Source of the DNA: Escherichia coli
Lineage (GTDB): Bacteria > Pseudomonadota > Gammaproteobacteria > Enterobacterales > Enterobacteriaceae
Assembly: GCF_041886205.1 (NCBI RefSeq)
Contig: NZ_CP169029.1
Length of the DNA stretch: 64,000 nt
Strand: one strand, 5' to 3'
Below are positions 5,146 to 22,056 of the stretch, one piece after another. Within the stretch, counting starts at the first letter, position 1. Every line of letters starts with the position of its first letter. Made by a program: the position numbers and the translations under genes. The notes under the pieces were generated by a model. That model saw only the letters and a program-made list of their open reading frames with translations. It searched no databases and was not told the origin of the DNA.

Positions 5146-7122
5146 ATGTCTGACGACATGTCTATGGGTTTGCCTTCGTCAGCGGGCGAACACGGTGTAC
5201 TACGCTCCATGCAGGAGGTTGCAATGAGCTCCCAGGAAGCCAGCAAGATGCTGCGTACTTACAATATTGCCTGGTGGGGCAATAACTACTATGACGTTAA
5301 CGAGCTGGGCCACATCAGCGTGTGCCCGGACCCGGACGTCCCGGAAGCTCGCGTCGATCTCGCGCAGTTAGTGAAAACTCGTGAAGCACAGGGTCAGCGT
5401 CTGCCTGCACTGTTCTGTTTCCCACAGATCCTGCAGCACCGTTTGCGTTCCATTAACGCCGCGTTCAAACGTGCGAGGGAATCCTACGGCTATAACGGCG
5501 ATTACTTCCTTGTTTATCCGATCAAAGTTAACCAGCACCGCCGCGTGATTGAGTCCCTGATTCATTCGGGCGAACCGCTGGGTCTGGAAGCCGGTTCCAA
5601 AGCCGAGTTGATGGCAGTACTGGCACATGCTGGCATGACCCGTAGCGTCATCGTCTGCAACGGTTATAAAGACCGCGAATATATCCGCCTGGCATTAATT
5701 GGCGAGAAGATGGGGCACAAGGTCTATCTGGTCATTGAGAAGATGTCAGAAATCGCCATTGTGCTGGATGAAGCAGAACGTCTGAATGTCGTTCCTCGTC
5801 TGGGCGTGCGTGCACGTCTGGCTTCGCAGGGCTCGGGTAAATGGCAGTCCTCCGGCGGGGAAAAATCGAAGTTCGGCCTGGCTGCGACTCAGGTACTGCA
5901 ACTGGTTGAAACCCTGCGTGAAGCCGGGCGTCTCGACAGCCTGCAACTACTGCACTTCCACCTCGGTTCGCAGATGGCGAATATTCGCGATATCGCCACG
6001 GGCGTTCGTGAATCTGCGCGTTTCTATGTGGAACTGCACAAGCTGGGCGTCAATATTCAGTGCTTCGACGTCGGCGGCGGTCTGGGCGTGGACTATGAAG
6101 GCACCCGTTCGCAGTCCGACTGCTCCGTAAACTATGGCCTCAATGAATACGCCAACAACATCATCTGGGCGATTGGCGATGCGTGTGAAGAAAATGGTCT
6201 GCCGCATCCGACGGTAATCACCGAATCGGGCCGTGCGGTGACTGCGCACCATACCGTGCTGGTGTCGAATATCATCGGCGTGGAACGTAACGAATATACG
6301 GTGCCGACCGCGCCCGCAGAAGATGCGCCGCGCGCGCTGCAAAGCATGTGGGAAACCTGGCAGGAAATGCACGAACCGGGAACTCGCCGTTCTCTGCGTG
6401 AATGGTTACACGACAGCCAGATGGATCTGCACGACATTCATATCGGCTACTCTTCCGGCACCTTTAGCCTGCAAGAACGTGCATGGGCAGAACAACTCTA
6501 TCTGAGCATGTGCCATGAAGTGCAAAAGCAGCTGGATCCGCAAAACCGTGCGCATCGTCCGATAATCGACGAACTGCAGGAACGTATGGCGGACAAAATG
6601 TACGTCAATTTCTCGCTGTTCCAGTCAATGCCGGATGCATGGGGGATCGACCAGTTGTTCCCGGTTCTGCCGCTGGAAGGGCTGGATCAAGTGCCGGAAC
6701 GTCGCGCAGTGCTGCTGGATATTACCTGTGACTCTGACGGTGCTATCGACCACTATATTGATGGTGATGGTATTGCCACGACAATGCCAATGCCGGAGTA
6801 CGATCCAGAGAATCCGCCGATGCTCGGTTTCTTTATGGTCGGCGCATATCAGGAGATCCTTGGCAATATGCACAACCTGTTCGGTGATACCGAAGCGGTT
6901 GACGTGTTCGTGTTCCCTGACGGTAGCGTAGAAGTAGAACTGTCTGACGAAGGCGATACCGTGGCGGACATGCTGCAATATGTACAGCTCGATCCGAAAA
7001 CGCTGTTAACCCAGTTCCGCGATCAAGTGAAGAAAACCGATCTTGATGCTGAACTGCAACAACAGTTCCTTGAAGAGTTCGAGGCAGGTTTGTACGGTTA
7101 TACCTATCTTGAAGATGAATAA
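5146..7122 (+). CDS. speA: Biosynthetic arginine decarboxylase (PLP-dependent), 658 aa
   Basis: ORF track 5134..7122 starts at a TTG; ATG at 5146 gives [56 protein letters not shown], the SpeA N-terminus; length matches 658 aa. Confidence 0.97.
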
Positions 7123-19241: not shown

Positions 19242-20405
19242 ATGTCTGTAATTAAGATGACCGATCTGGATCTTGCTGGGAAACGTGTATTTATCCGTGC
19301 GGATCTGAACGTACCAGTAAAAGACGGGAAAGTAACCAGCGACGCGCGTATCCGTGCTTCTCTGCCGACCATCGAACTGGCCCTGAAACAAGGCGCAAAA
19401 GTGATGGTAACTTCCCACCTGGGTCGTCCTACCGAAGGCGAGTACAACGAAGAATTCTCTCTGCTGCCGGTTGTTAACTACCTGAAAGACAAACTGTCTA
19501 ACCCGGTTCGTCTGGTTAAAGATTACCTCGACGGCGTTGACGTTGCTGAAGGTGAACTGGTTGTTCTGGAAAACGTTCGCTTCAACAAAGGCGAGAAGAA
19601 AGACGACGAAACCCTGTCCAAAAAATACGCTGCACTGTGTGACGTGTTCGTAATGGACGCATTCGGTACTGCTCACCGCGCGCAGGCTTCTACTCACGGT
19701 ATCGGTAAATTCGCTGACGTTGCGTGCGCAGGCCCGCTGCTGGCAGCTGAACTGGACGCGCTGGGTAAAGCACTGAAAGAACCTGCTCGCCCGATGGTGG
19801 CTATCGTTGGTGGTTCTAAAGTATCTACCAAACTGACCGTTCTGGACTCCCTGTCTAAAATCGCTGACCAGCTGATTGTTGGTGGTGGTATCGCTAACAC
19901 CTTTATCGCGGCACAAGGCCACGATGTGGGTAAATCCCTGTACGAAGCTGACCTGGTTGACGAAGCTAAACGTCTGCTGACCACCTGCAACATCCCGGTT
20001 CCGTCTGATGTTCGCGTAGCAACCGAGTTCTCTGAAACTGCACCGGCTACCCTGAAATCTGTTAACGATGTGAAAGCTGACGAGCAGATCCTGGATATCG
20101 GTGATGCTTCCGCTCAGGAACTGGCTGAAATCCTGAAGAATGCGAAAACCATTCTGTGGAACGGTCCGGTTGGCGTGTTCGAATTCCCGAACTTCCGCAA
20201 AGGTACTGAAATCGTGGCTAACGCTATCGCAGACAGCGAAGCGTTCTCCATCGCTGGCGGCGGCGACACTCTGGCAGCAATCGACCTGTTCGGCATTGCT
20301 GACAAAATCTCCTACATCTCCACTGGCGGCGGCGCATTCCTCGAATTCGTGGAAGGTAAAGTACTGCCTGCAGTAGCGATGCTCGAAGAGCGCGCTAAGA
20401 AGTAA
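19242..20405 (+). CDS. pgk: Phosphoglycerate kinase, 387 aa
   Basis: ORF track 19179..20405; ATG at 19242 gives [25 protein letters not shown]. Confidence 0.97.
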
Positions 20406-20619
20406 AAAATCACAGGGCAGGGAAACCTGCCCTTGTTTCAGCGCGCTTTTAGAGCACGCATTTTTTCATACTCTAAATAATTCGAGTTGCAGGAAGGCGA
20501 CAAGAGAGTGAATCCCCAGGAGCTTACATAAGTAAGTGACTGGGGTGAGCGAACGCAGACGCAGCACATGCAACTTGAAGTATGATGAGTATAAGGCCCG
20601 ACGATACAGGACAAGAGAC

Positions 20620-21699
20620 ATGTCTAAGATTTTTGATTTCGTAAAACCTGGCGTAATCACTGGTGATGACGTACAGAAAGTTTTCCAGGTAGCAAAAGAA
20701 AACAACTTCGCACTGCCAGCAGTAAACTGCGTCGGTACTGACTCCATCAACGCCGTACTGGAAACTGCTGCTAAAGTTAAAGCGCCGGTTATCGTTCAGT
20801 TCTCCAACGGTGGTGCTTCCTTTATCGCTGGTAAAGGCGTGAAATCTGACGTTCCGCAGGGTGCTGCTATCCTGGGCGCGATCTCTGGTGCGCATCACGT
20901 TCACCAGATGGCTGAACATTATGGTGTTCCGGTTATCCTGCACACTGACCACTGCGCGAAGAAACTGCTGCCGTGGATCGACGGTCTGTTGGACGCGGGT
21001 GAAAAACACTTCGCAGCTACCGGTAAGCCGCTGTTCTCTTCTCACATGATCGACCTGTCTGAAGAATCTCTGCAAGAGAACATCGAAATCTGCTCTAAAT
21101 ACCTGGAGCGTATGTCCAAAATCGGCATGACTCTGGAAATCGAACTGGGTTGCACCGGTGGTGAAGAAGACGGCGTGGACAACAGCCACATGGACGCTTC
21201 TGCACTGTACACCCAGCCGGAAGACGTTGATTACGCATACACCGAGCTGAGCAAAATCAGCCCGCGTTTCACCATCGCTGCGTCCTTCGGTAACGTACAC
21301 GGTGTTTACAAGCCGGGTAACGTGGTTCTGACTCCGACCATCCTGCGTGATTCTCAGGAATATGTTTCTAAGAAACACAACCTGCCGCACAACAGCCTGA
21401 ACTTCGTATTCCACGGTGGTTCCGGTTCTACTGCTCAGGAAATCAAAGACTCCGTAAGCTACGGCGTAGTAAAAATGAACATCGATACCGATACCCAATG
21501 GGCAACCTGGGAAGGCGTTCTGAACTACTACAAAGCGAACGAAGCTTATCTGCAGGGGCAGTTGGGTAACCCGAAAGGCGAAGATCAGCCGAACAAGAAA
21601 TACTACGATCCGCGCGTATGGCTGCGTGCCGGTCAGACTTCGATGATCGCTCGTCTGGAAAAAGCATTCCAGGAACTGAACGCGATCGACGTTCTGTAA
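20620..21699 (+). CDS. fbaA: Fructose-bisphosphate aldolase class II, 359 aa
   Basis: ORF track 20536..21699; ATG at 20620 gives MSKIFDFVKPGVITGDDVQKVFQVAKENNFALPAVN. Confidence 0.97.
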   Translation: MSKIFDFVKPGVITGDDVQKVFQVAKENNFALPAVNCVGTDSINAVLETAAKVKAPVIVQFSNGGASFIAGKGVKSDVPQGAAILGAISGAHHVHQMAEHYGVPVILHTDHCAKKLLPWIDGLLDAGEKHFAATGKPLFSSHMIDLSEESLQENIEICSKYLERMSKIGMTLEIELGCTGGEEDGVDNSHMDASALYTQPEDVDYAYTELSKISPRFTIAASFGNVHGVYKPGNVVLTPTILRDSQEYVSKKHNLPHNSLNFVFHGGSGSTAQEIKDSVSYGVVKMNIDTDTQWATWEGVLNYYKANEAYLQGQLGNPKGEDQPNKKYYDPRVWLRAGQTSMIARLEKAFQELNAIDVL

Positions 21700-21722: not shown

Positions 21723-21750
21723 AGGCCCGCTCTGCGGGTCTTTTTTTCGC
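21723..21750 (+). terminator. Rho-independent terminator of fbaA
   Basis: ggcccgc-tct-gcgggtc followed by tttttttcgcc. Confidence 0.8.
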
Positions 21751-21765
21751 CAAAAGCAAAATTGC

Positions 21766-21862
21766 CTGATGCGCTACGCTTATCAGGCCTACACGTATCC
21801 TGCAATATATTGAATTTGCAGGTTTTTGTAGGCCGGATAAGGCGTTCACGCCGCATCCGGCA
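21766..21862. repeat. REP/BIME pair between fbaA and mscS
   Basis: gcctgatgcgctacgcttatcaggcctac and gtaggccggataaggcgttcacgccgcatccggca in inverted orientation. Confidence 0.7.
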
Positions 21863-22056
21863 TGACAAAGCGCACATTGATATCTGTCTGAGCCCCGCTC
21901 TGCGGGGATTTTTTCGCTAAAAGCAAGGTGATTCAGATGAGAAATCTGTGATCTATTTGGCAAAATTATGCTTTATTGTTTACCCTTGTCAGACTGCCCG
22001 TCATAAGGCGGCGGAGTGTATTTCTCCATTTTGAGTCAGTTGAAAAGGAATATTGA

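Follow-up and report, generated by a model that had tools for sequence, protein, structure and literature searches.

The 64,000-nt stretch of DNA analysed here (the window) is part of an E. coli chromosome. Within it the pgk coding sequence lies at 19242-20405 on the plus strand (387 aa plus stop, MSVIKMTDL...MLEERAKK*; named pgk in the RefSeq annotation of the identical K-12 region), and fbaA follows on the same strand at 20620-21699 (359 aa plus stop, with 72-99% identical proteins in 80 genomes). A query of 421 nt taken around the spacer between them matched many complete E. coli genomes at 100% identity, and in such genomes RefSeq annotates pgk and fbaA on its two sides. The pgk stop codon, TAA, occupies 20403-20405 and the fbaA ATG begins at 20620, which gives a spacer of 214 bp at 20406-20619 and agrees with the preliminary description of this DNA. 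The spacer differs from that of K-12 MG1655 by two substitutions, was found in full in 5414-5417 of 5426 complete E. coli genomes, and is predicted to fold as a whole with an energy of -80.1 kcal/mol (z = -7.9). The K-12 RefSeq annotation has no feature within it, and the repeat element described below is not marked there as a repeat.

The fbaA leader, with its Shine-Dalgarno sequence, is conserved and occupies 20595-20619 on the plus strand (GGCCCGACGATACAGGAC..., with AGGA at 20608-20611). The block GGCCGAAGATACAGGAC beside the ATG was kept in Citrobacter, Enterobacter, Kluyvera, Pluralibacter and others when spacers were compared. The fbaA reading frame stays open upstream as far as a GTG at 20536, inside the repeat element, and the open reading frame listing accordingly gives a 387-aa frame at 20536-21699. 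We argue that this longer frame is a mechanical extension and that the true start is the ATG at 20620, as both the N-terminus, MSKIFDF, and the leader in front of it are conserved.

On the other side of fbaA there is a terminator hairpin, ggcccgctctgcgggtc followed by ttttttt and then ...cgccaaaagcaa, at 21725-21746. A near-exact second copy of this unit, gccccgctctgcgggga followed by tttttt...cgctaaaagcaa, lies at 21892-21915, and two REP-like palindromes (21757-21863) separate the copies. The repeated unit looks like a duplication around a REP/BIME insertion. Both copies have Term-seq 3' ends in K-12, at 3070119 and 3069950.

Hairpins after the pgk stop codon

Eight nucleotides past the pgk stop codon lies an 8-bp GC-rich stem (AGGGCAGG/CCTGCCCT) closed by a GAAA loop and followed by UUGUUUC (hairpin 1, 20414-20433, plus strand). 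Its arms, 20414-20421 and 20426-20433, form eight perfect pairs, six of them GC, with an energy of -17.1 kcal/mol (z = -3.9), and only one of 200 shuffled sequences folded equally well. The hairpin and weak T-tract noticed earlier after the pgk stop, with the tail TTGTTTC, are real features of the sequence. The tail, UUGUUUCA, has only four to five U and failed the plus-strand criterion of our terminator scan; several relatives have five to six T at this place. That scan returned one site against 1.1 expected by chance, and its sole site was hairpin 1 read on the minus strand, where the A run includes the pgk stop codon. We gave this match no weight, since there is no minus-strand gene for it to serve and the A run is not conserved.

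Hairpin 1 is judged real on the strength of its covariation and of an RNA 3' end mapped at its foot (see below), not of the terminator scan. A GC-rich stem-loop is found 6-16 nt 3' of the pgk stop codon in nearly all sampled Enterobacterales, usually with 4-6 T within the 8 nt after the stem. The stem sequences themselves vary by species, and include GGGCAGG/CCTGCCC, CAGGCGGG/CCCGCCTG, ACGGGAGGC/GCCTCCCGT, GAACAGGAAGC/GTTTCCTGTTC, GGGCGGTGCC/GGCACTGCCT and others. Among 16 in-register sequences 96.9% of cells were paired, a figure favoured by our centring each segment on the best hairpin of its species, and two-sided changes were seen at four of the eight pairs. The covariation score was greater than that of all 500 shuffles and all slid controls. 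Hairpin 1 looks like either a leaky intrinsic terminator or a hairpin that protects 3' ends.

A second, weaker terminator-like hairpin, absent from the preliminary description, lies further into the spacer, directly upstream of the repeat element, and is part of the ancestral spacer. This hairpin 2 pairs GCG.GCUU with GAGC.CGC at 20441-20459 on the plus strand and is followed by six U at 20461-20466, the feature as a whole spanning 20441-20466 with an energy of -8.6 kcal/mol. Most Enterobacteriaceae have a small hairpin and a pyrimidine or U run in the same place, with different sequences in Superficieibacter and Mangrovibacter. The K-12 Term-seq tables of Adams et al. (2021) list no 3' end at hairpin 2.

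The segment that forms hairpin 2 has a second potential partner. The last ~21 coding nucleotides of pgk (20378-20398) are complementary to 20440-20459, and the predicted helix of ~19 bp would enclose the pgk stop codon and hairpin 1; 20372-20470 as a whole folds with an energy of -47.6 kcal/mol (z = -7.8). The same helix is also predicted for E. albertii, C. werkmanii, Citrobacter FP75 and E. cloacae, and is not predicted for Yersinia, Serratia, Pantoea or Erwinia. Among the species compared it showed no compensatory change, and the palindrome AGCGCGCT gives part of the match. If the modelled helix forms, translation of the end of pgk could control the formation of hairpin 2.

An ERIC element in the spacer

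The second stem of the preliminary description (ccccag...ctgggg) also exists, with arms at 20514-20527 and 20532-20545 and an energy of -22.6 kcal/mol (z = -6.1). Rather than being a stem tailored to regulation at this locus, it forms the central inverted repeat of a full-length ERIC (IRU) element, a known miniature mobile repeat of enterobacteria, an identity that the preliminary description missed. The element occupies 20468-20594 on the plus strand, 127 bp or ~60% of the spacer, and its consensus strand is the transcribed strand. The left terminal inverted repeat (20468-20491) pairs with the right one (20569-20592) over 24 nt with 79% complementarity, and the right repeat is AU-rich (ACUUGAAGUAUGAUGAGUAU). 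Between them the central stem-loop, 20514-20545, shows the highest conservation within the family alignment.

The identification rests first on the 44-nt ERIC core GTGAATCCCCAGGAGCTTACATAAGTAAGTGACTGGGGTGAGCG, which matched 20508-20551 exactly (44/44) with a chance expectation of 0; this query we take to be the complement of the primer ERIC1R, GTGAATCCCCAGGAGCTTACAT, plus the primer ERIC2, AAGTAAGTGACTGGGGTGAGCG. As the stem is the core of a repeat family whose 44-nt core has no matches expected by chance, we judge it to be real. When 20440-20619 was used as a blastn query, the number of matching places per E. coli genome had a median of 12. A 145-nt query (20462-20606) matched 339 plasmid records from more than 10 genera, among them Salmonella, Escherichia, Klebsiella, Citrobacter, Rahnella, Enterobacter, Pantoea and Yersinia. 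The full-length plasmid copies, which include those of Escherichia, Klebsiella, Citrobacter, Salmonella, Serratia and Rahnella, span query positions 7/8 to 132/133 and so set the limits of the element at 20468-20594.

These limits are also seen when copies are aligned with their flanks. We aligned 11 copies, of which eight were fetched as copies of this kind and two came from related chromosomes. Similarity runs from (T/C)ATAC(T/C)C to G(A/G)GTATA, the flanks are unrelated, and the core is conserved in all 11. The right edge of the pgk-fbaA copy reads GAGTA|TA|AGGCC and the left edge TTTTTTC|A|TACTC, one base short of TA; the copy in Citrobacter FP75 has TA at both sides. The copies that we examined elsewhere are likewise intergenic, for example in cusF-cusC, ilvC-ilvY and aceF-lpd.

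The unit folds as one long imperfect hairpin of -49.5 kcal/mol (z = -7.0), compared with -39 kcal/mol for the opposite strand. In the consensus fold of nine copies, compensatory changes are seen at 14 of the 38 pairs, and the two ends of the element pair with each other.

Other families were considered as the source of the stems. REP/BIME elements were rejected, because the sequence matches ERIC and REP-like palindromes occur only downstream of fbaA. Rfam contains no ERIC family, and an Rfam search of 20000-21000 in evalue mode gave nothing beyond a sub-threshold match to V_AS5 and a chance-level match to BSnc120 (E = 0.31). The model of V_AS5 (Vibrio RNA AS5, RF02818) aligns end to end with 20466-20588 on the plus strand (E = 5e-7), and shares with it the ERIC core and the paired ends. 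We rejected membership of that family, as the score was 40.2 bits against a gathering score of 96. The core common to V_AS5 and ERIC reads GAGUGAAU.CC...GUGACUG..GUG.GCGAACGC, and the V_AS5 family is probably itself built on an ERIC-related Vibrio repeat.

Spacers in related genera

Using FbaA as a probe, we collected pgk-fbaA junctions from 80 species-representative genomes and extracted their spacers. Spacers of 83-110 bp with no ERIC were found in Citrobacter werkmanii, Pseudocitrobacter, Kluyvera, Enterobacter cloacae, Pluralibacter, Phytobacter, Superficieibacter, Mangrovibacter and others. They follow one plan: the pgk stop codon, hairpin 1 with a T-rich tail, a small hairpin with a pyrimidine or T run, and the leader (A)AGGCCGAAGATACAGGAC...ATG. 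The E. coli spacer is this short plan with 125-127 bp between TTTTTTC and AAGGCC, and the empty site in most genera reads ...TTTC(C/TA)A(A/C)GGCC....

The spacer of E. albertii, at 142 bp, keeps both ends of the same ERIC and has lost the middle. The insertion is thus older than the split between E. coli and E. albertii. Citrobacter sp. FP75 has a 214-bp spacer with a full ERIC (L003 1350-1475 in our set of junctions) in the same place and orientation, 76-78% identical to the E. coli copy. As the FP75 element is also 65-76% identical to unrelated copies in our identity matrix, these figures fit orthology and independent insertion alike. An uncultured enterobacterial genome (MAG CTSoil_132) carries a diverged ERIC-like insert, whose position and orientation are again the same. 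The junction may be a hot spot, or one ancestral insertion may have been followed by losses. That it is a recurrent, selected landing site for ERIC-type elements, used in E. coli/E. albertii, in Citrobacter sp. FP75 and in the uncultured enterobacterium, is conceivable but improbable.

Two observations concern ERIC copies elsewhere. The copies most similar to that of pgk-fbaA come from unrelated E. coli loci, the cusF-cusC spacer (plasmid pEcFELIX533.1; 97-98% identical) and an F-prime region (F128; 92-95%), and the positional counterpart in Citrobacter resembles it less; this is compatible with recent copying or gene conversion among E. coli ERICs. Hafnia paralvei has no ERIC in its pgk-fbaA spacer and has an oppositely oriented one ~200 bp beyond fbaA (L017 2782-2907).

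RNA 3' ends in E. coli K-12

The preliminary description had read the spacer as a place of partial termination or processing with an internal fbaA promoter, had named the mapping of RNA ends as the check, and had named uniform read-through with no internal ends as the result that would speak against it. A published set of curated Term-seq 3' ends covers MG1655 in three conditions (Adams et al., 2021, eLife; PMC7815308, Supplementary file 1). We converted K-12 coordinates (K) to window positions (w) by w = 20405 + (3071459 - K), and checked the conversion against the printed sequences, which run from 50 nt upstream of each end to 10 nt downstream of it. Read counts are given below in the order of the condition sheets which, if it is that of the caption, is LB at OD 0.4, LB at OD 2.0 and M63 glucose at OD 0.4.

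Two of the listed ends fall within the spacer. The first, classed as the primary 3' end of pgk, is K-12 3071427 on the minus strand, window 20437 on the plus strand, with 46373 reads in the first sheet and 45215 in the third (PMC7815308). It is not listed in the middle sheet, LB at OD 2.0 if the caption order holds. The RNA ends ...CCUGCCCUUGUU-3', 4 nt past the stem of hairpin 1 and directly after the extended stem of the predicted fold. The second, classed as an orphan, is K-12 3071314 on the minus strand, window 20550 on the plus strand, with 24316, 48771 and 35983 reads (PMC7815308). This RNA ends ...CUGGGGUGAGC-3', 5 nt past the central stem of the ERIC, and, as there is no U tract, processing is its probable origin.

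The primary 3' end of fbaA itself, at K-12 3070119/8 on the minus strand, had 160555, 54607 and 120854 reads (PMC7815308) and was the most abundant of these ends in all three conditions. As the fbaA terminator gives the largest 3' end signal, most transcripts read through the spacer into fbaA. Supplementary file 2 of the same study lists no Rho termination region naming pgk or fbaA (PMC7815308). Internal ends are thus present at both hairpins together with dominant read-through to fbaA, and coverage is not the uniform read-through that would have spoken against partial termination or processing; that part of the earlier proposal is supported, and the internal promoter, discussed below, is not. 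On the 3' side, the published tables thus already answer the mapping experiment that was named as the check.

The ERIC core occurs in six rows of Supplementary file 1 of Adams et al., three of which are the pgk-fbaA site. Another site among these rows is the aceF-lpd spacer of K-12 (127588-127911), in whose ERIC the consensus strand is again the transcribed one; a 3' end at 127845 on the plus strand lies ~12 nt past the central stem. As this copy shows the same pattern as that of pgk-fbaA, a 3' end after the central stem may be general for transcribed ERICs.

Discussion

We conclude, with considerable confidence, that the pgk-fbaA spacer of E. coli has two layers, an ancestral terminator-like part of ~88 bp and a single inserted 127-bp ERIC, and that fbaA has no promoter of its own within it. 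The first layer comprises hairpin 1, hairpin 2 with its U run, and the fbaA leader with its Shine-Dalgarno sequence. Hairpin 1 would act as a weak intrinsic terminator, as a barrier to 3' exonucleases, or as both; some transcripts would stop there to give a pgk-only mRNA while most would go on into fbaA. Read-through at hairpin 1 is favoured by the weak U tract and by the nearness of the hairpin to the pgk stop codon. The second layer is the ERIC, which entered the spacer downstream of hairpin 2 and its U run and upstream of the fbaA leader at a time before E. coli split from E. albertii, and which is fixed in E. coli.

Once co-transcribed, the element is expected to fold as the long hairpin of its family. 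The end at 20550 would then be an intermediate of decay or processing: an endonuclease may cut further 3', for example in the AU-rich right arm, and exonuclease trimming after that cut would stall at the central stem, whose predicted energy is -22.6 kcal/mol.

One alternative to partial termination concerns hairpin 1, and we regard it as possible but doubtful. It holds that the hairpin terminates nothing, that read-through is complete, and that the 20437 end arises solely when 3'-to-5' exonucleases stall at the hairpin after a cleavage downstream. The U tract is indeed weak (UUGUUUC), and the hairpin begins only 8 nt past the stop codon, where a terminating ribosome would cover its 5' arm. The 20437 end is also unusually near the stem, which fits trimming at least as well as termination, and one of the three condition sheets does not list it. 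Against this, relatives have a hairpin with a better T run in the same place, an arrangement typical of intrinsic terminators; examples of the run are CAGGCGGGGAAACCCGCCTGTTTTTC in Pseudocitrobacter and Enterobacter sp. and, in P. gergoviae, TTTTTT. Adams et al. class the 20437 end as the primary 3' end of pgk (PMC7815308), a class drawn from Term-seq, which does not distinguish termination from trimming. We keep to a leaky intrinsic terminator as the putative role of hairpin 1, which may instead, or in addition, stop exonucleases.

A second alternative gives the ERIC a function. The element would have been co-opted, its fold and an exposed nuclease site uncoupling the stability of the pgk and fbaA segments and so helping to set the Pgk:FbaA ratio, as has been proposed for the ERICs of Yersinia that RNase E cleaves. 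Orientation-dependent effects of ERICs on the levels of flanking mRNAs in Yersinia (PMC2229807, PMC3184786, PMC10969869) give this some credit. The E. coli element is co-transcribed and fixed, its transcribed strand folds better than the other (-49.5 against -39 kcal/mol), and its internal 3' end is reproducible in all three conditions. The aceF-lpd ERIC, in another highly expressed operon, behaves similarly, and ERIC-type inserts are found at the same site in three lineages.

Nevertheless, most related genera do without the element and manage with a short spacer, and in E. albertii the central hairpin has been lost together with most of the rest. A 3' end beside any stable hairpin is also expected from ordinary decay. 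In Yersinia, ribosomes near the stop codon reportedly block the folding of the ERIC left arm and unmask an RNase E site, according to the 2005 abstract of De Gregorio and colleagues. The left arm at pgk-fbaA begins 62 nt past the stop codon, so that the Yersinia-type adjacency of the ERIC to the upstream stop codon is not found here and ribosome-dependent unmasking is unlikely. On balance co-option seems unlikely to us. That the element has a selected role is quite unlikely, given the many relatives without an ERIC and the gutted element of E. albertii. Equally hard to credit is the most ambitious form of the idea, in which the ERIC is a selected RNA module that gives pgk a stable 3' UTR end and lets fbaA decay separately, the junction is a recurrent landing site, and central hairpins define 3' ends in general; taken together, this seems improbable.

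The internal promoter remains from the earlier proposal, and would give fbaA a transcript of its own. The spacer is long, fbaA 3' ends outnumber pgk 3' ends in Term-seq, and there are -10-like hexamers in the right arm of the ERIC, TATGAT at 20581-86 and TATAAG at 20590-95. These hexamers are generic ERIC sequence, present in all the aligned copies, and our consensus scan of 20100-20900 found no sigma-70-like site, that is, no -35/-10 pair meeting its criteria. Olvera et al. (2009) examined the same 214-nt spacer by 5'RACE with fbaA primers and obtained no product and no start site (PMC2759082). They concluded that fbaA depends on upstream promoters, and place the promoters already described for the operon ahead of epd and within its 3' end (PMC2759082). 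The literature otherwise has pgk and fbaA co-transcribed from promoters upstream, two of them in the account given by a paper that cites Bardey et al. (2005). With both the scan and the 5'RACE negative (PMC2759082), an internal promoter is very improbable indeed.

The two-layer spacer is therefore a canonical ERIC copy beside an ordinary intra-operon hairpin; it is nothing new in kind and its components are already known. A literature search pairing ERIC with pgk and fbaA returned nothing relevant. What the present analysis adds is a link between an orphan Term-seq end and the central stem of an ERIC, and a documented comparison with the empty site. Beyond the correct annotation of the spacer its importance is small. 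More generally, where an intergenic region of an enterobacterium appears structured, the ERIC, REP and BIME families should be checked before locus-specific regulation is proposed. If the ERIC were shown to alter the balance of pgk and fbaA mRNA, it would be a modest E. coli example of a miniature transposon tuning the stoichiometry of glycolytic enzymes, a kind of tuning so far argued mainly for Yersinia.

Hairpin 1 resembles the leaky intra-operon terminators and 3' stabilising hairpins known from other operons: it is GC-rich, lies just past a stop codon, has a U-rich tail and has a 3' end at its foot. As with leaky intra-operon terminators, read-through predominates downstream, and conservation of the hairpin extends across genera. 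It differs from them in its interrupted U tract (UUGUUUC), and is a putative terminator only.

The ERIC family has been known since 1990-91, and Wilson and Sharp reportedly surveyed the ERICs of E. coli K-12 genome-wide in 2006. The element in the spacer is like the rest of the family in its length of 127 bp, its identical core, its imperfect terminal inverted repeats with TA-containing ends, its intergenic position and its co-transcription. Like them it belongs to a set of about a dozen detectable copies per E. coli genome that is spread over many enterobacterial genera, it is present or absent at orthologous sites, and it has an internally deleted short variant in a sister species. There is no difference in kind; a clean left TA target duplication is not preserved (CA|TACTC compared with GAGTA|TA). 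These features match the published traits of ERIC/IRU elements, which are 127 bp long, intergenic and MITE-like, with terminal inverted repeats and TA termini (PMC2229807, PMC3184786, PMC10969869).

The closest functional comparison is with Yersinia. As summarised in later articles, De Gregorio et al. (2005) described ERICs there as mRNA stability elements (PMC2229807, PMC3184786, PMC10969869), and reviews place an RNase E site in the right, or 3', terminal inverted repeat (PMC2229807, PMC10969869). Like those elements, the copy between pgk and fbaA is co-transcribed between the genes of an operon, folds as a long hairpin, has an AU-rich right arm and is associated with an internal RNA end. 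It differs from them in its distance from the upstream gene, its left arm being 62 nt from the pgk stop codon with two hairpins between.
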